From Octopus vulgaris (lineage: Eukaryota), in the NCBI GenBank assembly GCA_951406725.2, contig OX597814.1:117490001-117554000 (forward strand): a stretch of 64,000 nucleotides of DNA, given 5' to 3'. Position numbers and translations under genes: made by a program. The notes beneath the pieces were generated by a model. It was not told the origin of the DNA, made no database searches, and saw only the letters and a list, made by a program, of their open reading frames with translations. How positions within the stretch are numbered: the first letter of the stretch is position 1; each line of letters starts with the position of its first letter. Below, one piece after another: positions 3,541 through 47,298 of the stretch.

Positions 3541-3756
3541 TCACAAAACCAAAAATAAACACGATTTTGACGGCTCTATAGGTATTTCAAAATTATGATG
3601 CTATGATGCTTGGTGTTTCCATTATTTTGTTCAACCCCTGTATATAGATCCATATATTTACACACATACATACACGCGCACAATCACACTCACAGTGACG
3701 CACACATCTACAACGGTCTCCACAACAAACAACTTGACCCATGCATGAATATATAT

Positions 3757-3981
3757 ACTCTTTTACTCTTTTACTTGTTTCAGTCATTTCACTGCGGCCA
3801 TGCTGGAGCACCGCCTTTAGTCGAGCAAATCGACCCCAGGACTTATTCCTTGTAAGCCCAGTACTTATTCATCAGTCTCTTTTGCCGAACCGCAAAGTAA
3901 CGGGGACATAAACACACCAGCATCGGTTGTCAAGCAATGCTAGGGGGACAAACACAGACACACAAACACACACATATATAT

Positions 3982-4047
<66 letters not shown>

Positions 4048-4208
4048 GACAGGCTTCTTTCAGTTTCCGTCTACCAAACCACTCATAAGGCATTGGTCGG
4101 CCCGAGGCTATAGCAGAAGACACTTGCCCAAGATTCCACGCAGTGGGACTGAACCCGGAACCATGTGGTTGGTTAGCAAGCTACTTACCACACAGTCACT
4201 CCTGCGCC
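3757..4208 (-). mobile_element. Octopus-type tRNA-derived CORE-like SINE (family A) with internal (TA)/(TG) microsatellite
   Basis: Head GGCGCAGGAGTGACTGTGTGGTAAG, B box GGGTTCAGTCCC, CORE-like TCTTGGGCAAGTGTCTTCTGCT, tail (GAGTAAAA)n. Many copies in this window. Confidence 0.85.
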
Positions 4209-4219
4209 TATATATATAT

Positions 4220-4872
4220 ATTAATCAATTTAGGGTAGTAAAAAATTCAATAGAAATTTATCGCTACCAGCGGTCTATTAGGGTAAATGTTTTTAAATTT
4301 TCATTTAATTTCTGAATTACTACTACTTAGCGGTTTGAGTCCTGGCTGCTTCTTCTAGTGGGCCGAATGGCCTATTAAGGCCATTCCTTAATTGTTGTTG
4401 AATTTATATATATAGTCTTTGACTATTTTCTCTTTCCCACTAGACCGCTGGTAACGATAAATTTCTATTGAATTTTTTGCTACCCTAAATTGATTAATTG
4501 ATGATTTTCTGACTAATTCTGATATTGAATCAGCAGTTTATATTTACTGCTGATAAGTTGGCGCGAATACGATGGTTTTGAAAATTTTAGGGCAGATATT
4601 CCGAGGGCATTGATACAGATGCCTCGTGTATATCCGTCTCTCCTGGTTTCTTTACTGATGAGGTGTAGCCTTTGGTAGATTGACTTAATTTAATTTAATT
4701 AGTCTGGTTTGCCATTAAAAACACCGAAACGATGCATCGTCTAAAGATGAATTAGGGTAAATGTTTTTAAATTTTCATTTAATTTCTGAATTACTACTAC
4801 TTAGCGGTTTGAGTCCTGGCTGCTTCTTCTAGTGGGCCGAATGGCCTATTAAGGCCATTCCTTAATTGTTGT

Positions 4873-4874
<2 letters not shown>
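4220..4874 (+). mobile_element. Retrozyme/pLTR-like non-coding element: 474-bp period, identical 124-bp direct repeats and a 58-bp inverted 5' piece
   Basis: 4277-4400 is identical to 4751-4874. 4220-4277 is the reverse complement of 4441-4498 (2 mismatches). (TA)n on both sides. Contains a hammerhead. Confidence 0.8.
4649..4747 (+). ncRNA. Type I hammerhead ribozyme with extended stem II
   Basis: TCTTTA-CTGATGA(4655-4661)-GGTGT...ACACC-GAAA(4726-4729)-CGATGCATCG-TC-TAAAGA. 6-bp stem I, 5-bp stem II base, palindromic stem III, GUC triplet. Confidence 0.85.
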
Positions 4875-4913
<39 letters not shown>

Positions 4914-5656: not shown

Positions 5657-6064
5657 ACTCTTTACTCTTTTACTCTGTTACTTGTTTCAGTCATTTGACT
5701 GTGGCCATGATGGAGCACAGCCTTTAGTCGAGCAAATCGACGCCAGGACTTATTTTTTGTAAGCCTAGTACTTATTCTATCGTTTCTTTTGCCTAACCGC
5801 TAAGTTACGCGCACGTAAACACACTAGCATTGGTTGTCAAGCGATGTTGGGGGGAAAACACAGACACACACATACACACACATATATGTATATACATATA
5901 TACGACGGGCTTCTTTCAGTTTCCGCCTACCAAATCCATTGTCAAGGCTTTGGTCGGCCCGAGGCTATGGTAGAATACCCTTGCCCAAGGCACCATGCAG
6001 TGGGATTGTGCCCGGAACCATGAGGTTCATAGGCAAGCTACTACCACACAGCCACTCCTATACC
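5657..6064 (-). mobile_element. SINE family A copy
   Basis: Colinear with 3757-4208 along its whole length. Confidence 0.85.
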
Positions 6065-17310: not shown

Positions 17311-19400
17311 CATATTAAATAGATTGATGAAAAACCATTGCTAGTCAGTTTTGTAAAGCCACTGAGAATGTATGTTAAAAATGTGTAATTTAATAGAAGA
17401 AACGAAGATCCTTATTGTAGCAGCTCAAACTAAAGATTTTGAAAAGAAACAACATGAGAAAGTATGTGTATGGAGGAAAACGTGTCAGTAAAATGTAGTG
17501 TATGCAGAATTTGGGATGAAGAAATGGCATATATTCTCACAGAATAATCGAAGTTGGCTCAAGCAGATTATAATTATAAGAAACGTACTTATGACGAAGT
17601 TTACAAACTTTTACTCTGAAAACTTTGTCTGAAATGGGTGATTGCAGGTTGAAGCTGAAAGTACTTGATATAATCGTCGGATAGAAAGAATACTTGTGTT
17701 GGAAAAATGCAAGATTTTATAGGATTTTCCAATTCGAACTGATGAGACGATAGAAAATGATAAGAAATATCTAAAAGTAGGCAGGGAAAAGCGAATTTGC
17801 TTAGTGATTGATCCATCATGTCTGTTTGAATTGTGAAGAAATAAGTGGAACAACTATCAGGTCGAGTAAAATGCAAACGACATTTTGAACCTTGACAAAA
17901 TAGTATCGGATTTTTGCAGTTTTGAATTAGAAGAAAAAAATGTTTTGAAATTGTCTGATAATACAGACATGGACTTGCCCAAATGCATCAGTAAATTAAC
18001 ATTGATATTTTTTTCACCGTTGTTACGATCATCTGGAATGGACCTGTCTAATTGCGATATTCGAGCAATTTTGCTATATAACTTAAAAAAAAAGGACGTA
18101 ATGGAGCTGAAGCTGCTGAGGATATTCAACGAAACTTTTGGTGAGGAAATTAACTGTGAGTGGCCAGCTCAAAAATGGTTTAAACGATTTCGCATTGAAG
18201 ACCTGAACGTTGGTGGTGGTGAGCGTAATAGACGCCCATCTGTCATCGATGACGGTCAATTAAAGACCACCATTGAGAAGGATCCACGTAAACCCTCTCT
18301 AGAACTGGCAGAACAACTTCATGTTGGCCAGAAAACTGCCAGCAACTATTTGTATGCGATCGGGAAATCAAAAAATCATGCCAAATGAGTGCCACACGTT
18401 TTCAATGAAAATCAGAAAATGCGCAGATATAAAATTTGCTCGTCGCTTCTCCTCCGTAACCAGACCGATCTAATTCTCGACCATATAGTAACTTGCGATG
18501 AAAAGTGGATTCTGTGCAATAGTGAAAATCGTTCTTCACAGTAATTTGGACCAAAATGAAACACCGGAAAGCTTCCCTACACCTGAGCTCTTCAAAAAGA
18601 ATGCTATGGTGAATGTTAGGTGGTGTACTGCTGAACCTATGCACTATAACTTCTTAAACCCTGAATAAAACCATTACAGAAGAAACATATTCCCATGAAA
18701 TTTCCAAAATGAATGAAATGCTGCTACTCCTCCGTCCCAAACTAGCCAACAGAAGAGGGCCAATTATTATTCATGACAATGCTCGACCACCCGTTTCAAT
18801 AACGACGCTCCAGAAGTTGAGTGAACTTGCCCAAAATGTTCCTCTCCACCCAGATTATTCCCCATACCTTTCTCCAACCGACTATCATTTTTTGAAGCAC
18901 CTTGATGGTTTCCTGCGTGAGGAGTTCAAAAATCAAACCGATACTGAAAGTGCGTTCAAAAAGGCCATCAACTTCTAAACAAACTTGTAACTCCTTGGCA
19001 AAAAGGTACTGATTGTTTTGGTACTTACTTTGATGAATAAACTTTCAGCGTTGATAAAATATATAACTTCATGTTTCAAAAAGTTGCTTACTTTTAACTC
19101 AGCCCGATAAGAGTATACACTCCCTTAAAATTTGAGTTTGCGAGAATTTGAAATATGGAAACTGTAAATGTTCTAACTGCAGTAAATGGAGCATGAGGGC
19201 ATATTAAAGAAAAGGACAAATGGATGAAGAAGATTGGAATGCAATCTCCTGCAAGATTCATAAAATGTTTACCTATTAGGAACAGAGAATCAGAACAATT
19301 TTGAGTACTTAAAAGATTATTGAAAGTTTGCGGATATCTAGGGTTACCGGTAACCCACTAACAACTTCACTTCTGCCAAGAAGTCAGGTAAAAAAATAAT
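16550..19400 (+). mobile_element. Heavily decayed R4/Dong-type (RLE) LINE, split by a mariner insertion
   Basis: Fragments RFCWKRNQNGSG (17050), LIVAAQ (17410), CSVCR, KLAQADY, IL*DFPIRTDETI (17710-17755). After the mariner: FARI*NMETVNVLTAVNGA*G and LLGT. Confidence 0.6.
17857..19107 (+). mobile_element. mariner (DD34D) transposon relic
   Basis: TA-flanked diverged TIRs (TCAGGTCGAGTAAAA / TTTTAACTCAGCCCGA). HTH region IRAILLYN...WFKRFR, VTCDEKW, and HDNARP...YSPYLSPTDYHF with 34-residue spacing. Stops and frameshifts present. Confidence 0.9.
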
Positions 19401-23282: not shown

Positions 23283-26200
23283 CCCTGAAGACGTCCAAAC
23301 CGAAGGGAACAAAATCGAAGCGGCCAAAGAAGGCGAAGGAACCGGCGGTCGTTTCCACACATGATCGTTCATGTGCGGATTCTTCCTCATCTGCCTTTTC
23401 GGTCCCGGAGGTTCCCCAACCTAATTTGAGGAGCTAGACTCAAACCCACCTGAAGACCGTTGTTCTCCCAAAAAGAAAGAAACGTAGTCAAAACTCCAGT
23501 GGGGCAGATTTAGCTACGAAACCTGCTCACGATAAAATCTGTTTGGATTCTCCCTCACTTGTCCTTCCCATTAATGCCATTGCTCAACCAATTCTGAATG
23601 ATTTTGATGTGAGTTAATCTGGAGAGTGGTGCTCCTCCAAACCGAAGAAGGGGCAGTGCAGTTCCAAACCAGGCGGGAAAGTTATGAACAAAAACCCATC
23701 ACGATCGACCCCAAAGGCCGACATAAGTCTGATGGCTATGAAACCACCCTCTCGAAATCATCGAACGAATAATCGAATGCCGCAGCTCATAATAGAGAAC
23801 AGTAAGACCATTTTGTCCACTCAGGATCAGCAATCATTTATGGTAAAGCTGAATCCACCTGTGATACAGGCATAAACCGCCTAAAAGAAGACATAAATTT
23901 TGTTTCCGTTTTAGTTGGAGAATTGTTCTCTGTCAACGAAAATGTCAGTATCCATAAGGTCGCTCGGCTAGGAATATTCCAAGCGAGCTCAACGGCAGAC
24001 ACTAGACCACGCCCAATAAGAGTAATCTTTTCTTCCGATCAGGAGGCTTCAACCTTTCTCAACAGAGCTCAGATGCATGCCTGGGAGGACCCCAATATGG
24101 GTTTTCGCGAGGAATACTCACTGAGAGAGAGAATTCACCGGAGAAATCTAATATCCGAACTGAAGATGAGAAAACAGATGTGAGAGAAGGGTTTATGCAT
24201 CCAAGATGGACAAATAATCAAGTCCTACCTGTGGTCACATGCTGTAGTGCTGACAGGGAAAGTGAATCGAGGGCGAATCGAAGTAAAGTAGATACCACCG
24301 TCAACGATGCTATCTCTGATACCCCTTATTCTGTTGTTCCCCAATTCCCGCCCCTCAAACTTCACAGCTCAGCATCGTCTATACCAACTCGTGCTCCTTA
24401 TTTCCAAAGTTCAGAGAACTATTTACATTGGCCATGCGTGATTCCCCTGATGTGATAGCGATCACCGAGACTTGGCTAACTCCAGCATTAAAGGACTCGA
24501 AAATCCACCTACAGGGCTACGCCCTCTTCAGATGTGACAGAGAGAAAAGACGAGGTTGTTGTGTATGTTAAATCTGTGTATGTTAAATCTGATCTCAAAC
24601 CGTCCAGCGGTATTCTACCCAATAATGCTCAACCTACAACAAAGTTCGATGCCGTATATTGCAAGCTGAGCCTATCCGGGTTTTGCCTGCCCGTGTTAGC
24701 TGTCTACAGGCCGCCTCTTGCCGACCATCTAGACGATGCTCATTTACTCGAAGCGATAAGGTTCGTTTCAGCTTCTCATGACTGTTTGATATTAGGAGAC
24801 TAATCGATTGGCCCTCATCAATTTGTACATCATCCTCCCGGTTCGGCCAGGTCCTTCTTGACGTGGCGGAAGATTGTTTTCTATCGCAACATGTCGAATA
24901 TCCGACAAAGCATCGGTCTGGGCAGCAGCCATCTATGCTGGATCTGGTATTCTCCCGCTATCCAAGACCAGTGTCAGACGTATCTGTGTGCGCCCCTCTT
25001 GCCAAGATTGATCATGCGGTCCTGAAGTTCGTCATGCACACCACATTTTCTACGCCCACGACTACTTCGCTGCCACGTAGTCTTCTCTGCAATTAATCTT
25101 GAAATTCTAACCGAGGCTTCCGCGCTTCTGGACTGGCGATCCCTGATGACGTTGTCCTCAGTTGACGAACTATGGTCGTCCCTCAAAGCATATGTAATCT
25201 GGTTGACTGACCAAGCAGTTCCCGTTGGGCTTCCCAAGGAGAAGAAACACAAGCCCTGGGTGACGAAGAAGGTTAAACAAGAACTTCGACTCAGAGATAT
25301 TGCTTGGGCTGAATTCAAAAATCTGGATTCGACTGCAGCTTTTGAGGTGTACAAAACTCAACGAGACCAAGCCGTGAAAATTGAAAAGAAGAACGCTTCA
25401 GATATGAATACAGAATCGCGGCAAACGCCAGTAGCAATCCAAAAACCTTCTTTGCCCATGTCCAACGGAATTCCCGCTTAAACAACCAAATTACAACGTT
25501 GGTAGACTCAACAGGCGTATCAATTGAGGACCTTATCAACAGAGTCAATTATTTACCGAGGCTTTTTCAACTATTTTCAAACAAGATGATGGTCGTGAAC
25601 CCTCTCCATTTGATAGATCGGTACCTCCAATGCTTCGATCGGTCATCACGCGAGACGAAGTCGAACGCGTTATTCAAGGCCTCGATGTCAACAAGGGTCA
25701 CAGCCCTGACGGCATACACCCACGGGTTATCAAAGCGTTGGCTCCGGTCATCTGCGAGCCCTTAACACATCTATTCAATATGTTATTGGCGACGGGTGTT
25801 ATACCTGCGGACTGGAGAACAGCGATAATCTGCCCAATTTTCAAGAAAGGGAGCCGCGAAGACCCGCTTAACTACCAACCGGTTTCCCTTACATCAATAA
25901 TCAGCAAGATGTTCGAAACCATCTTTAAGAAAAGTATGATGCTCCACCTCCAAAACACAGCCTCTATCTCTGATTCCCAACACGGCTTCGTGCCGAAGAG
26001 ATCATGCTTGACTAACTTACTGGTAATGGAAGAATTAGTGACGCGCATCCTCGATAATAGTGATGCTGTTGACCTATGTTTTATTGGACTTTGCCAAAGC
26101 TTTTGACTCGGTAAACCACCGCCTATTACTTGACAAGCTTCAAGCATTTAGTTTCCATCCGGATATTGTACGATGGGTTGGTGCCTTCCTCTCAGATCGC

Positions 26201-27231
26201 TCCTTCCAAGTCCAAGTTAATGGTTCGCGGCCCGACGTCTCCAGTGCGAATAGTGGCCTGCCTCAAGGTTCAGTGCTTGGGCCCTTATTGTTCTTAGTCT
26301 TCATAAATGACTTGCCCGACGACCTCTCACGCAACACACCCTTCTATTTGCCGACGATGTCAAACTGGTCGCTCCTCGCGGTGATATAGAGGATCTTCGT
26401 CGATGCCTCCACCAAATTTGGAGATGGTCTAACGAATGGGACCTGTGTCTGAACGTGTCAAAGTGCTGTCATCTGCCTGTTGGCTCTCCTCCTGCAACTC
26501 AACTTGATTTCGAGCCGGGTCGTCTGCTACAGGAGAGGACCGATCAGGTAAAGGACCTGGTATCTTGGTGGATTCCTCCTTTTCGCCTTCGGCCCGGTGC
26601 GTCCATACTGCCAACAAAACACGCGGAGTTCTGTTCTTGATTCGACGGTCATTCGGAATGCTCACAGCAGCCATATTCCTACTGCTCTATGTCACGCTGG
26701 TGAGACCCATATTGGAGTACGGGATTCAAGCCTCTTCTCCTTATCTCCTCAAAGACATACAGCATCTCGAAAGAGTCCAGAAGCTGGCTACCCGCATGGT
26801 TCTTGATCTCAAGAATTTGTCGTATGAAGAAAGGCTGAAGACGCTCGACCTTTATTCTCTAGGAAAACGACGACGCCGTGGTGATCTCATTCTTGCTCAC
26901 AACATCATAAGCGGAAAGTGTAACATCTCGAAGGAGCTGTTCTTCACTCCTGCTCCAGAGCGTCGGCTGCAGGGTCATTCCGAAAAGCTCTATCTGCTAC
27001 GATTTCATCTCAATCGAAGGAGAGGGGCTTTCTCCGTCTGGGTTGCGGATCCGTGGAATAAGCTGCTGGCCGAGATGGTGAAGATGCCGACGACCGCTCG
27101 GTTCAAAGTCTCCCTTGACCACAAGTGGCCTGAACTCTTTACATGAACACCACCCTGTACATAAATCAATGTCCCCCTACATGGCCTTGCTTTTTTGCTT
27201 TTTGAGCTAAAAAATTAACTAACTAACTAAC
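23283..27231 (+). mobile_element. Near-full-length decayed CR1-type LINE (ORF1 remnant, APE, RT)
   Basis: ORF1-like RLG...RPRPIRVIF. APE motifs DVIAITETWL, YRPP, ILGD, LDLVF. RT motifs SPDGIHPRVIK, YQPVSLTS, QHGF..KRSC, DFAKAFDSV, PQGSVLGPLLF. C-terminal LERVQKLATR, RRRGDLI. (TAAC)n tail. Many frameshifts. Confidence 0.92.
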
Positions 27232-29864: not shown

Positions 29865-31410
29865 AATGGGGTTCAGGGCTTTTGGCTTAAAATCCTGACA
29901 GGTCTGTACAGGAGAATTGCGGGACAGATGGATGAAACATTGAGTAGTGGCATCCAAGTACCAGCCAGGATGACAAAAGGAAGAACGGTACTATGCCAGA
30001 AGGACCCAAGTAAAGGGAATGCGGTTGGAAATTTCTGACCAATATCTTGTTTGCCACTGATGTGGAAACTGATGACGGGCATCATATCAAACAGCATCTA
30101 TAAGTACCTAGATGAATCTGACCTACTACCAGTGGAAGTAAGAGCGGAGGGATGAAGGATCAATCACTTATCGATAAGAGTATCATGGCTGACTGTAAGA
30201 AGAGACGCAAAATGTTGGTGATGGCATGGGTAGAAAGCATATGACATGGCCCCACACTCGTGGATTATTGAATACCTTAAGGTCTCCCACAATATCCTGA
30301 GGTCAAGGCAAAACTCAATGACAACGTGGCAAACTGAACTCACAGCACGGAGATATAAGCTAGGAGAAACAAATATCAAAAGAGGAAAGTTTCAAGGGGA
30401 CAGTCTGGCGCCTCTCCTATTTGTTGTCTGTATACTGCCGCTAACGGGCGTTTTAAGAAAGATGCGTGTGAAGTACATGCTAGTCAGGTTGACAGTAAAC
30501 AACCTGTGGCTTAAAGATGACCTAAAGTTATTCGCCAATACTGAGAGAGAAACTGTGCAAATGATTAGCAAACATATTACCATGGAATTTAGGATCGAGA
30601 AATGTGGTGTAATGATTCTGAAAGGGGTGGGGCGTAAAAGCCATGTGATCAAGTTGGTAAGTGGTGAAACTATAGATGACGTCGGAGAGGAAGGATATAA
30701 GTACACGGGTATCATTGAAAGAGATAAGATGATTGAACACAAGATGAAAGAAATGTACGGGAAGGAGTAATTAAGAAATCGGCTCGTGTTTCAATCGAGG
30801 CTAATTGGCCGCTATAAGATTAGAGCGATTAACACGTGGGCAGTTCCTTTGATGTGATATGGGGCAGGAATAGTAACTTGGAAGAAGCATGAGTTACAAG
30901 AGACAGACCGAGGAACACGTAAGTTAATGAACTACACCCCAAGAGTGATGCGTCAAGAAGGAGGACGGGGATTGGCGGGCGTGTTGTGAAGGTTGTGAAA
31001 GGGAAGAAAATAGCCTGGTTTGGTATGTCAAGGTGGGTAAAAAAGAAATGATTGAAGCAGTGAAAATGCAAGAAACCTTAAAAGTGAACGAAGCTGTAAA
31101 TCCAGCACAATTAATGAAGACCAGATAGAAAGCAGATGATGAAAATTTTGCCGGACAAGAAAATGCACAATCAGGTAATGGCTGCAGAAAGAAGACTTAA
31201 AAGGGCACTGATGCATTAGTTTGCAGCACCTGAGAGCAAGTTCTCGAACAAACTACGCCACATATTACATTAATAAAAGTACTAACTCACCACAGTGTAG
31301 GATGTGCTCTCAGAAGGGCGAAAGCACTACATGAAACCTTTGGTGATTTGTTATTGCCTGCTTTCAAGTAAAGAATAAACGGCAATTAAGAACTAGCTGA
31401 GTATTCCTCA
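29865..31410 (+). mobile_element. Decayed R4/Dong-type LINE (RT to zinc finger)
   Basis: [73 protein letters not shown]. Followed by (AAT)n. Confidence 0.88.
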
Positions 31411-41387: not shown

Positions 41388-43878
41388 TCAGGTTATCCCA
41401 TAAGTTCTGTCCGAATTTTGGATAAAGAATACAAGTGATCAAATGTTATATTTAATTGTAAGTTAATCATCGATGTACTTTCCCAGATTATCTATGACTT
41501 ACTTCCATCTATTTACAAGCTTTTTAATCCCATCAATGTAAAACTTTTTTGGTTTGAAAGCGAGGAACTCTGAAATGTCAGGTTCGACCTCCTACTGGCT
41601 TGCGAAAGTTGTGCCCCCCTAATAATTCTGTAAACTATGAAACAAATGGTATCCTGAATGAGTAAGGTCGGGAGAATAAGTTGGATGAATTTTTTTCCAA
41701 ACCGACCTCTTCGATATTCTGTGATGAGATCGTTGCAGTGTAGGGTTGCGCATTATCCTGATGAAACATCACTCGTTTTCGACTCACTAAAGCGGCTCTT
41801 TTTTCCTTCAAAGCTAGTTCAAACGCTCTAAGTGCTGACAATAGACTTGAGCTTGATTGTTGCATTAGGTGGCAATAATATAAAGTGAATTGCGCCTTTG
41901 CAATCGCACCAGACAGAGAGAAGAACCTTTTTTCCCATGAAGCTCCTTTCTCGGTTGTAGTTGAGCATTTCTCTTTTACCAAGCCACTGTTTACTACGTT
42001 TAACATTTCGATAGAAAATCCATTTTTCGTCAAAAGTCTATCGAAAAAGGGTGAAATGAGTTTGCGAGAATGGAGAGAAGAGCAGATGTCAACTCGGGAT
42101 TTGCGGTTGCTTTCGGACACTATATGAGGCACCTATTTTCCAAGTTTAGGAATATTTCCACGTTGTTGAAGATGACGACGAACTGTTGTATGGTTTGAAG
42201 TAAGCTTCCTTGCCAATTCTTCACGTAATGCCTCAAGGAGCTTATCAACAAACTCAACTGGACGTCCTGTTCGATATTCATCTTCAATTTTGCAAAAGAT
42301 CTCCTGCAAGTTCCTTCATTCAAGCATTTTCCCATAAACTGAGTGTATGTTTCGAGTCACTTCGGCTGCAGAGTTACCTTTATTGTACTCATAAATAATT
42401 ATATGTGCCTTAACTGCTCCTTGGATACTTCCATGTTGAAAAGGTTTTAATCAAAGCAATTTTAGGGTATCCACGAAATCTGGGTACATGGAATAAAATC
42501 ATAACATAAAAAAATAAATATAAGAAATAATAATTTTTCTTTTTTACTTTTGTTTAAATTAAATTAAAAAATACTTTACTTTTCTAAATTTATGTGTTAA
42601 TTTTTCTACAGATGATCGAATGATGGATCTGTCTAAAGAAGAAAGAATCGAGTTAGTATTATTAAGTGGACGAAAGAGACGGTCTTATCGCAAAATTGTG
42701 GAATAATTTAATCTTCGACACCCTTATAGGCAACCTGCCGTCGGGAAATTGATCAAGAAATTTAAAGAAACAGGCAGTGTTTTAAATAAACCTCGTTCCG
42801 GGCGACCAAAGCCTTTAGATAAAACGAAAGAGGCTGTCACGGCTAAAGTTTCTGCTAGCCCAAAGAAATCACTTCGTCGGACATCCACAGTGTTAGGTGT
42901 TACAAAACCAACCATCCATAAAATACTGGTTGAGGAAAAAGTTTCATCGATACAACCTACAGATATTGCATCACTTAAATGAAGACGACCCTAATAGCCG
43001 AATGTAGACGTGCGAATGGTTTTCAAATAAAATGGATGAAAATATCAATTTTACGAAAATCTTTGTGTTGTTAAGTGACAATACTACGTTTTATGTAAAT
43101 GGTGAGGTCAACAGACAGAATCTTCTATACTGGTCTCGAGGTAATCCACATTGGATGGATCTATCCAAACAGCAAGGCAGCAAAAATGTGATGGTGTGGT
43201 TTGGTTTGTGTAAAGCTCATGCTCTAGGACCCTCCTTCATGTAACGGATGAGACTTATGTAAATATATTGAGAGACAAATTAATATCTCACATTGAGGGC
43301 CTTCCGAATTGGATTCAGCAGGATGGGGCCCCTGCCCATTTTGCCACAACTGTTAGAGATTGCCTTAATGGCACTTTTCCTCACTGGATTGGAAGAAGGG
43401 GTCATATGGAATGGTCCCCTCGTTCACCAGACCTTTCTCCCCTTGATTTCTTTTTCTGGGGTATGTTGAAAGAGAAAGTTTACTCAATAAAGATTACAGA
43501 TTTAAAACACATGAGAGAACGCATTACCAGTCAGTGTGCTGAAATTGATGGCAATGTAGACTTATTTAATCACGTTCAACTGAATTCTGCCAGGCGCGTC
43601 AGGTTATGCATTGAAAATGATGGAAATCCCTTTGAAAATATTTTTTATTAACATTATAATTAAATAAAATTGTTTTGTTTTAAAAGTATGTGTTAATCCC
43701 CATGTACGCAGACTTTGTGGGTACCCTTTATTATTTTGTAAAACAATATTGAATTAGTTTAAACGTACACAAAGGCATAAAATTAATTTTTAATTAAATT
43801 AGACATTTGAAAATACTATTAAATTTCATTCAAATCTAAAAAGAGGGAAAATTGAACAGAACTGATTGGATGACATGA
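41388..43878 (-). mobile_element. mariner relic interrupted by a second DNA transposon
   Basis: TIRs TCAGGTTATCCCATAAGTTCTG / CAGAACTGATTGGATGACATGA. Coding motifs VPH, VMFHQDNAQPY, YSPDL..YHLF at 41450-42435. Confidence 0.85.
42463..43728 (+). mobile_element. rosa/DD41D-like Tc1/mariner transposon relic
   Basis: TIRs AGGGTATCCACGAAATCTGGGTACATGG / CCATGTACGCAGACTTTGTGGGTACCCT. Motifs KFKETGSV..KPRSGRP, SDNTTFYVNGEVNRQN, QQDGAPAH...WSPRSPDLSPLDFFFWG (40 residues between the 2nd and 3rd D here). Confidence 0.88.
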
Positions 43879-44314: not shown

Positions 44315-44567
44315 TTCTTGCCTGTCTCTTGACGAAGCTTTTTTTCTCCAGCGTTCACCACTTCACCTCGTTAGGGTTAAACAGCCTTTACCGAATGTTT
44401 TCACTGTCCTGTTTTTGTTAGCAGCTTTGACGATCCACGTATCTCAAATGTAATTTAATTTGCTTTGGGGGAGCAATTGCTTTGACGAAGACGTATCTAG
44501 GTAAAACTGCCAACAACTGAGGAAGGGTTGTTTTTTATGCTGCCTTCGCGCTATAGTTCTCTATATA
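44315..44567 (+). repeat. Interspersed repeat related to 50569-50990 (pLTR-like)
   Basis: Shares colinear motifs ACTGTCCTGTTTTTGTTA, TTTAATTTGCTTT, GAAGACGTATCT and CTGAGGAAGG with the reverse complement of 50700-50860. Confidence 0.5.
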
Positions 44568-44593
44568 TAATTGAAATTCTTTCTTTCTTTTTT

Positions 44594-46115
44594 GCCGAGT
44601 CAAGCCAAGCCAAGCCGAGCCGAGCCGAGCCATTTGTAATAGTGACACCAATGCCATAACGCTCACTGTGGTGTCGTAGGCCCGGACAGTGAGCGCAATG
44701 GCGCCCAGAGCAAGCTCTGATGATCCTCAGCAGCTTTGGTGGACATCCGATTTTTTGGAGTAGGATGAAGAGGCCTTTTCTACTTACGAAGTCAAAGGCC
44801 TTTGTCCGATCAACGAAGGCCATATATAACGGCAGTTTCTGCTCTCTGGACTTCTCCTGAAGTTTGCGTATGGGGAATATTATGTCAATAGTTGATCTGC
44901 TTCTTCTAAAGCAACACTGCGATTCTGGATAAATTCGGGAAGCAAGCAGTTGTAGCCTGGACAGGATAATGTGAGCAAATGGCTTTCCAAAAGTGCTTAG
45001 AAGAGATATTCCACGGTAATTGTTACAATCACCAGGGTCACCTTTGTTTTTGTAAAGCGTGATGATGTTAGCATCCCGCATATCATGAGGGACTGTATCC
45101 TCTTCCCAGCACTAACACAGAAGCTCATGAAGGTGCCGAAGCAGGATGGTGTTTTTGCGGTTTTGATGATCTCTAAGGGGATGCCGTCTTTTCCGGAGCG
45201 TTGTTACTTGCTAGAGATTCAATAGCCTTGGTGAGCTCTGCTATAGATGGCAGCTACTGTGGACCCCGTGAGTACAGATTCTGGTAGTACTCCACCCATG
45301 TATCCATTTGCTTTCTTTGGTCATTGATGAGATCTCCAGTAGTTAAATTCAGAGAGGCTGACTTGGTTGCGGATGGTCCGAGGGCCTTCTTCAAACCGGC
45401 ATACATCCAACGGGTGTCACCACTGTCAGCAGCTGACTTGATACTCTGACAGATTTCCTGCCAATACCTATTTGCACAGCGTCTGGCAGTCAGTTTGATT
45501 TTATTTCTTGCCTTTCTGCGTTCTTCGAGTAACTTTGTAGAAGAATCACTCTTATATTGCACCAGAGCTTTGCTTCGATAACTGTTTCCAGCACTGAGAG
45601 CCCAACACTGAACAAAATCTGGGTATATAGAGAACTACGACGCGAAGGCAGCATAAAAAACAACCCTTCTTCAGAAAGTATCTATTGATGTAGTATACAA
45701 AGCTTCCCTGATATAATTCCACCTACTTTCAGCAGAAGAAGTTGGGTAGCTATTAAGGGCGACCTTGATAGAAACAGCAAAACATTGTCGCAGTGTAGGG
45801 TCCGAGGTTCTGCCAGTGTTAATGCGTGGTCGGCCCATTTTCTTGGAGTGATGGACTTTTTTTAGGCAGAATCCTCACCCTGCTTCTTATTGGTGAATAA
45901 TCTGTCACAATCCACACTGTAGTAAGTACGGGTCAGTTGAGCAGAATTCAGAAAGGATTTTCGTGTAATGATGAGATCCAGCTAATGCCAGTGGTGAGAT
46001 CTTGGATGTCTCCAAGATGCCTTGTGGGATGTCTTGTTGGAAAAGAATGTGTTGGTGATGCACAGGTTATGGTATGTGCAAATTTCAAGTAGTCTCTGAC
46101 CATTGTCATTCATGT
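44594..46115 (-). mobile_element. RTE/BovB-like LINE remnant, internally deleted, with a pentamer tail
   Basis: HPRSHHW, MRDANIITLYKNKGD..DCNNYRGISLLS, PESQC.FR..RST.D, AFVD.TKAFD, GCPPKLL. Tail (GGCTC/GGCTT)n at 44594-44631. Confidence 0.9.
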
Positions 46116-46302: not shown

Positions 46303-47298
46303 GTATACACACAAAGATAAATTGATGGATACAACTGCGTGGGCAAACAAAAATATGAGACACTGCATAGTGCTTTTTTTATATTTTGATAAGCCTGGTA
46401 CTTATTCTGTCAGTTTCTTCTTGTGAAACCAGTAAGTTATGGGGATGTAAATAAACGAACACCAGTTGTGAAGCAGTGATGAGGGAGAAACACAAAGACA
46501 CACACATAGACTTACGTATATTCATACATATACATGCAATTGATTTCTTTCAGTTTCTGTCTACAAAATCCACTGACAAGGCTTTGGTTGGTCTGAGGAT
46601 ATAGCAGAAGACACATGCCAAGTTACCACACAGTGGGACTGAATTGAGGACCATGTGTTTTGGAACCAAGTTTGTTACCACACAGCCACACCTGCACTTG
46701 TGTATATGTATGCGGGGTGGTGGTGGATCGGTGTGTGTGTGTATGGGTGTATATATGTATGCGTGTATATATATATGTATATATATATATATGTGTGTAC
46801 ATATTACATGTACATCTATATATACATCTAGACATCTATAGAAATACATCTATACATATACATGTATACATATAGATCTATATATATGTATATATATATA
46901 TATATATATACATACAATAGAGAGATGCTTTTGTTTCACTTTTAACACGTAATACTGAAATAGTGGAGAAGATGTGATATTGCTGTGGGCTCGCCCTAGG
47001 CAAGAAGTTAAACAGTTTTTTTGCCCATGACACTACATGGAGCCTATGTAAAGCATGTGTAAAATTTGAATGAAATTGGTTGTGTAGTTCTCAGGTTTTA
47101 GGGATTCATAGTGGAGAAGATATGATATTGCTATGGGCTTGCCCTAGGCAAGAAGTTAAAAAAAGTTTTTGCCCGTGACACTCCTTGGACCCTAAGTAAG
47201 ATATGTGTAAAATTTGAATGAAATTGGGTGTGTGGTTCTCAGGGTTTAGGGATTCACACAGACAGGCACACACACATTCTCAGTTTTATATATAGAGA
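46290..47298 (-). mobile_element. Second, 3'-truncated copy of the SINE-carrying Helitron-like element with a ~150-bp internal tandem duplication
   Basis: Colinear with ~36740-37582. 46960-47108 is duplicated at 47109-47257. Minus strand starts TCTCTATATATAAAACTGAGAATG. Confidence 0.75.

Follow-up and report, generated by a model that had tools for sequence, protein, structure and literature searches.

A dispersed non-coding hammerhead repeat of Octopus vulgaris with two fixed termini: a non-LTR retrozyme probably mobilised by Penelope-like elements

The element described here occupies a small part of a 64,000-nucleotide stretch of Octopus vulgaris DNA, the whole of which was analysed and is termed the window; positions are those of the window. 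The element comprises two back-to-back arms bounded by (TA)n tracts, with the following features:

4209..4219, no strand: left (TA)n target tract, short, read from the sequence; lying at the tail of a SINE-like repeat of very high copy number (about 4047-4208)
4220..4277, minus strand: inverted arm of 58 nt, from unit positions 165-222, ending at terminus T2, which recurs in many copies
4277..4874, plus strand: main arm of 598 nt (474-nt unit plus 124 nt), 3' end at terminus T1
4277..4400, plus strand: direct repeat copy 1 (pseudo-LTR equivalent), exact match to 4751-4874
4401..4498, plus strand: 98-nt "tail" between T1 and T2, containing an internal TA tract; delimited by termini counts, the tail concept being that of PMC8557442 and PMC11167929
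4649..4747, plus strand: type I hammerhead, from motif scan, family alignment and folding
4751..4874, plus strand: direct repeat copy 2, ending at T1, exact match to 4277-4400
4875..4912, no strand: right target tract, (TA)19, read from the sequence

An initial annotation had described a perfect 124-bp repeat of 474-bp period beginning 10 nt past a ribozyme cleavage site, a 58-bp inverted piece at the 5' end, (TA)n on both sides and no credible open reading frame (ORF), and these features were all recovered. The direct repeat is exact over 124 nt and starts 10 nt 3' of position 4741, the 5' end of the main arm (4277) lying 10 nt beyond the equivalent of the cleavage site; the inverted arm matches 4441-4498 at 56/58 positions. 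The longest stop-free frame in the element extends for 58 aa and the longest ATG-started frame for 23 aa, and the element contains no ORF encoding reverse transcriptase (RT) and GIY-YIG domains, the mark of an autonomous Penelope-like element (PLE). The insertion had also been judged young, in agreement with the 0/119 differences between the direct repeats, compared with a pooled within-arm mean of 1.8%. Contigs from 4/4 sequencing runs cover the element and are uninformative on transcription, ends and circles; the listed records containing its sequence comprised contigs only, with no RNA record among them.

Copies of very abundant SINE-like repeats occur in the window at 3756-3893, 5663-5800 and 4047-4208, and the element is inserted in the TA tail of one of these; read depth in three sequencing runs was 10^6-10^7 on 4050-4217 versus mostly 10^1-10^3 on the element. 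The window also contains broken reverse-transcriptase fragments of LINE type (RVT_1 matches), at 24492-27146, 30234-30770 and 44551-45634, and a 148-bp tandem repeat occurs in two copies at 46960-47256. Frames at 17870-18978, 41635-42132 and 43214-43651 resemble mariner/Tc1 transposase remnants; two of the three were scanned and gave no Pfam match at E 0.01.

A scan of the entire window for the hammerhead motif returned a single match, in this element. The canonical core, 6-bp stem I, GUC triplet and self-complementary stem III described previously were found in place: CUGAUGA at 4655-4661, GAAA at 4726-4729 and GUC with C17 at 4741, after which cleavage is predicted; stem I formed by TCTTTA/TAAAGA (4649-4654/4742-4747); and a palindromic stem III at 4729-4740. 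Stem II has its base at 4662-4666/4721-4725 and a long AT-rich extension. This extension, also noted earlier, is present in this copy, but the distal GACT/AGTC helix proposed as part of it is, in exactly that form, absent from the other family copies among the 36 aligned. The predicted fold of 4640-4760 is more stable than 200/200 shuffled sequences (z -3.5), and that of the circular monomer has a z of -3.7 (0/60 shuffles better). The unconstrained minimum free energy (MFE) structure, at -25.1 kcal/mol versus -23.0 for the active fold, does not form stem III, implying a cost of ~2 kcal/mol. Two copies of the element could also pair with each other through the 12-nt palindrome (-18.7 kcal/mol), and intermolecular palindrome pairing is described for dimeric metazoan hammerheads (PMC4209133). 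Comparison with Rfam gave nothing at the gathering threshold, the best ribozyme match being a non-significant one to Hammerhead_3 (E 2.7).

The element belongs to a large family, for which 2407 first-look candidates were retrieved from the 2.8-Gb genome; full units are 86-98% identical and occur on many contigs (40 scored). Exact matches of three family motifs numbered 22, 32 and 149 (the last for one 24-mer), with 0 for reversed controls. Tandem arrays reach about 7 units, and there are arrays of 4-7 units that are near-identical (0-4 mismatches). The family thus presents a non-coding, low-GC 474-bp unit, both dispersed and in tandem, with consecutive units bearing hammerheads, as expected of retrozymes. 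A sister family with a 455-bp unit and the same two termini (1966 first-look candidates; loci L079-L108, e.g. L089) aligns with the main unit over its whole length with 335 identities, 113 mismatches and 33 gaps, or about 75% identity over aligned bases. The features of plant LTR retrozymes, a type III hammerhead in true LTRs and a 4-bp target duplication, are not those seen here, where the hammerhead is of type I topology, the flanks are TA and the 5' ends vary.

Of 36 main-family copies, 13 (this copy included) have a strict ribozyme core, 21 carry U4C in it and two have a broken one; in the sister family the core is strict in 25/29. Across these 65 hammerheads (36 + 29; 60 distinct), 97.8% of helix cells are paired, compared with 35-45% in slid controls. 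Nine of 15 helix pairs are changed on both sides, with compensatory changes in all three helices, most double changes tracing to the single split between main and sister family; stem II pairs vary inside the main family as well, and one stem III position shows three pair types (GC 20, AU 11, UA 28). Judged from these comparisons, a real hammerhead with a fold conserved across the family is supported.

Two other features of the unit were noted. The motif TAGGGTA (4279-4285), just past the cut site, is complementary to TACCCTA (4480-4486), just before T2, and both are kept in the two families; their pairing closes a domain from the cut site to T2 in the predicted fold (z -3.4), which we regard as a candidate RT-binding domain. 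A possible C/D-box snoRNA at 4494-4556 (SNORD52, 27.8 bits, cut-off 45) had box C in just 29/60 copies and was taken as a chance match.

Termini were examined in pattern-selected sets of insertions: a discovery set of 43 insertions from 60 loci, two loci having been dropped because they were cut by the locus edge, and a replication set of 31 insertions from 33 loci, with two dropped and six retrieved earlier (20 listed places and 49 unlisted matches lay outside the set). The 3' ends of the family lie at T1 (unit ~124, window 4874) or at T2 (unit ~222, window 4498), 98 nt further on, and are followed by (TA)n, while 5' ends vary. T1 and T2 may be two RT start sites flanking the 98-nt tail. Insertions with two arms paired T1 with T2 in 24/26 discovery and 20/24 replication cases, the remainder having a non-standard end; no T1+T1 or T2+T2 combination occurred in either set, and T1 on one arm was accompanied by T2 on the inverted arm in 44/44 two-armed insertions with standard ends. 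The copy in the window conforms, its 58-nt T2 arm standing back to back with the 598-nt T1 arm. TA occurs on both sides of 74/93 insertions, as with the (TA)n microsatellite targets of the Hydra and Naiad clades of PLEs. Further hallmarks of PLEs shared by the family are the partial tandem (pseudo-LTR), the inverted 5'-truncated arm and the tail at one end.

These observations alter the view that the element arose by reverse transcription some 1.25 times round a circle, with permutation points differing among copies. The family is indeed multi-copy, but its 3' ends are fixed at T1 and T2 instead of being randomly permuted, and the inverted 58 bp represent another arm, with its end at the other fixed site, which is a hallmark of PLEs that the initial annotation had not recognised. 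We also considered whether the arms of one insertion derive from different source loci, which is unsupported for the main family: over 12 insertions, divergence was 61/3475 (1.76%) within arms and 105/5786 (1.81%) between arms (p 0.87), and since it is no higher between arms, both would have the same source.

The same data bear on the proposal that the repeat is a minisatellite or foldback element spread at the DNA level, with a decayed or incidental hammerhead, or that the direct repeat is an assembly artefact. Units of 469 and 473 nt do occur together in one array (L171), a mixture suggestive of a degree of unequal crossing-over at a later stage. We nevertheless consider this proposal very improbable, given the dispersal of main-family copies over most large contigs, the fixed 3' and variable 5' ends, the compensatory changes in all three helices and the recurrence of the same architecture at dozens of independent loci.

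Autonomous PLEs are abundant in this genome and include several young families with intact frames of 717-1091 aa encoding RT and, at the C terminus, a GIY-YIG domain. Their proteins have the RW, DKT, CxCX5C and CxxC/CxH motifs that PMC8557442 gives for the Hydra clade, an assignment made by eye from the motifs rather than from a tree. In most of the sampled families there is a comparable hammerhead, its stem II also long, and copies have two termini in (TA)n; two-armed cases with both ends read had one of each terminus in 6/6. The likeness of this pattern to that of the octopus repeat points to a non-LTR retrozyme most likely moved by PLE enzymes. A parent element was sought by BLAST and with an nhmmer profile over 120 autonomous-PLE loci (479 kb), the PLE families of the genome being sampled via four queries; these searches returned separate retrozyme copies only, the next best match having E 0.005 with high bias. 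The sampled families, rejected as parent, share the architecture of the repeat and not its sequence, and the pseudo-LTRs sampled in this genome have no sequence similarity to it. Since no autonomous element with matching ends occurred in the 120 loci, we infer the partner from architecture.

Several of these PLEs have features of their own. A very young, massively amplified family with a 717-aa frame and a 2.59-kb period (L236-L265; G000:C3:37226182-37238271) gave 16137 candidates, of which 150 were scored at 99-100% in the piece searched; it forms head-to-tail runs of up to five, its hammerhead carries U4C, and its two termini are separated by 67 nt. Intact families of 778, about 980, about 1090 and 835 aa with Hydra-like motifs (L073-L078, L151-L169) have tails of roughly 110-150 nt, compared with the 30-40 bp quoted for PLEs. 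In one two-armed autonomous insertion (L073:1137-6587) the arms differ by 4.4% and the direct repeats are identical, which suggests, from sequence divergence, derivation from two different RNA templates. In a Neptune-like family with a 781-aa frame, the 3' region is long and repetitive, and the 900 nt past the frame lacked (TA)n at the four loci concerned (L115, L120, L162, L170).

On an alternative reading there is no independent non-coding element, and the copies are what 5' truncation has left of an autonomous PLE, namely its ends (pseudo-LTRs). Their architecture is that of truncated PLEs, most PLE insertions being 5'-truncated (PMC8557442), and the copy at L035 adjoins a PLE RT fragment. 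That neighbouring PLE, however, is old, broken, on the opposite strand and shares no sequence with the repeat, and for these reasons the chimeric insertion L035/L234 was also rejected as a clue to the partner. Each unit moreover has a further unit upstream of it, up to 7 in a row without an ORF, and the sister family has the same closed unit of 455 bp. This alternative is already largely refuted, and we consider it highly improbable.

The best explanation of the locus, to which we assign a probability of about 85% from the sequence comparisons described, is that a 474-bp non-coding repeat, dispersed in the genome and bearing a type I hammerhead whose fold is conserved, has left a young copy here, and that this repeat is a non-LTR retrozyme for which a Hydra-type PLE likely supplies the mobilising enzymes in trans. 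Hydra-clade PLEs target (TA)n and carry hammerheads (PMC8557442), and purified anole PLE cuts and extends both strands, with two RT start sites defining the tail (PMC11167929). Counting against it are the failure to find a parent in the 120 loci, the 21/36 copies with U4C and the inactive MFE fold, together with reports that the ribozyme of the anole PLE is dispensable in vitro, with no RNA reads ending at its site (PMC11167929, in the portion of the source covered), and that 8/9 Xenopus retrozymes tested failed to cleave (10.64898/2026.07.22.740005).

The 5' ends of arms offer a view of the RNA template. In 65 arms, 20 ends fell 0-45 nt downstream of the cut site, compared with 5 and 10 in the neighbouring 45-nt windows (p 0.003); this 0-45 nt window was picked on the discovery data and written down ahead of replication, in which the counts were 15 versus 6 and 5 (49 arms, p 0.009). 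In second and later passes, 11 ends lay in the 0-45 window and one in the window preceding it. The suggested tie of the redundancy's start to the cleavage site thereby gains statistical support in both sets. Selection on the T2 motif lowers the background rate, making the local contrasts more reliable than the Poisson figures. The 0-45 nt window is the most AT-rich (83%), other AT-rich windows (74-78%) being low in 5' ends, and a second hot spot of equal rate, close to both T1 and the internal TA tract, spans unit 84-129; a joining bias may therefore contribute to the pile-up.

Because a closed circle has no 5' end, the pile-up near the cut favours a tandem self-cleaved linear RNA, one of two templates proposed in the initial annotation. 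The sequence data thus favour templates that are ribozyme-cut linear RNAs, with a small loss on joining, rather than a closed circle. Arms extending more than 12 nt beyond the first cut site (59/114) imply either templates in which some sites were left uncut or had been rejoined, or an enzyme that jumps from one cut monomer to another. The other template, a 474-nt closed circle that reverse transcription would copy by a rolling-circle mode as modelled in PMC7229834, would belong to the same element; these long arms, near-identical arrays of 4-7 units, the favourable fold of the circular monomer and the circles formed by coral, mussel and axolotl retrozymes (PMC7229834) agree with it, and the pile-up could then reflect RT stalling at the hammerhead or AT-rich joining. 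Yet ends cluster downstream of the cut in first and later passes alike, and do so before RT would reach stems I-III; multimers, moreover, need no small circle, since head-to-tail multimers are formed in this genome by autonomous PLEs of 2.6 kb as well. We view the circle as unlikely to be the main template, and do not adopt it as our principal model, although it may form part of the RNA pool.

In the mechanism that we propose for PLE-driven movement of the retrozyme, tandem copies would be transcribed and the hammerhead would cut some sites, yielding linear RNAs whose 5' end is the product of cleavage. A PLE protein with RT and GIY-YIG activities, probably a dimer, would nick both strands of a (TA)n tract, one nick priming cDNA at T1 and the other at T2. 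Each cDNA would proceed toward the RNA 5' end, past hammerhead sites that were uncut, religated or jumped, and the two cDNAs would be joined 5' to 5'. At this locus the T1 arm would have reached 598 nt, coming to within 10 nt of the next cut site and so giving the 124-bp repeat, and the T2 arm would have ended after 58 nt. That the copies record such a PLE reaction in vivo, with a dimeric enzyme priming both nicked strands once per RT start site on hammerhead-cut linear RNAs and not closed circles, is a tentative proposal, to which we give slightly less than even odds.

Comparison with known systems places the element, by the sequence-level definition of that class, as a non-LTR retrozyme, neither an autonomous PLE nor an LTR retrozyme. 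Metazoan non-LTR retrozymes (PMC7229834; 10.64898/2026.07.22.740005) likewise consist of low-GC, non-coding units that measure a few hundred bp and contain one type I hammerhead apiece, and they occur as monomers to multimers and together with PLEs; the unit here, 474 bp, compares with 150-450 bp in the first source and 51-972 in the second. They have been argued to be non-autonomous PLE derivatives from 35 genomes, with no mollusc among the groups named in the portion of that source covered (10.64898/2026.07.22.740005). The octopus family differs in its stem II region of about 64 nt and its 4-bp palindromic stem III, and in fixed double termini, inverted arms and (TA)n targeting, which are not described in the portions of the two sources covered ("inverted" and "microsatellite" have 0 occurrences in that of PMC7229834). 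Circles, shown for retrozymes of coral, mussel and axolotl, are a possible form of the RNA here.

Like the family, Hydra-clade PLEs (PMC8557442) have a hammerhead within a pseudo-LTR, insert at (TA)n, form partial tandems and show, besides an inverted arm that is 5'-truncated, a tail at one of their ends; unlike them, the family has no ORF, and its tail is 98 nt long rather than the 30-40 bp quoted. The Anolis Poseidon element PAc (PMC11167929) is similar in its two internal RT start sites, the cutting and extension of both strands, an AT-rich target and a hammerhead upstream of the start sites; PAc is autonomous and, in the portion of the source covered, without sign of cleavage in vivo, whereas 5' ends here cluster near the cut site.

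We found no literature report of an octopus or cephalopod retrozyme, or of strict T1/T2 pairing, though supplements or Repbase/Dfam may hold the family; the main text of an octopus repeat annotation (PMC13282606) contains 0 occurrences of "ribozyme" or "retrozyme". Elements of this kind are already known, and the value of the family lies in two regularities at the ends of its copies, the T1/T2 pairing and the 5' ends near the cut, which make the mechanism of mobilisation testable. The enzyme that moves animal retrozymes and the role of the hammerhead in PLEs are stated to be open questions (PMC7229834, PMC8557442, 10.64898/2026.07.22.740005). The octopus family offers a compact test substrate, a non-coding RNA of 474 nt on which two start sites and a cut site have been mapped, in a genome that also contains young autonomous PLEs, and any model of how PLEs integrate faces a sharp prediction in the strict T1/T2 pairing. 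If the proposed reading is true, the family would provide evidence from a genome for PLE machinery as the means by which animal retrozymes move, and for cleavage of the transposition template by hammerheads of the PLE type.
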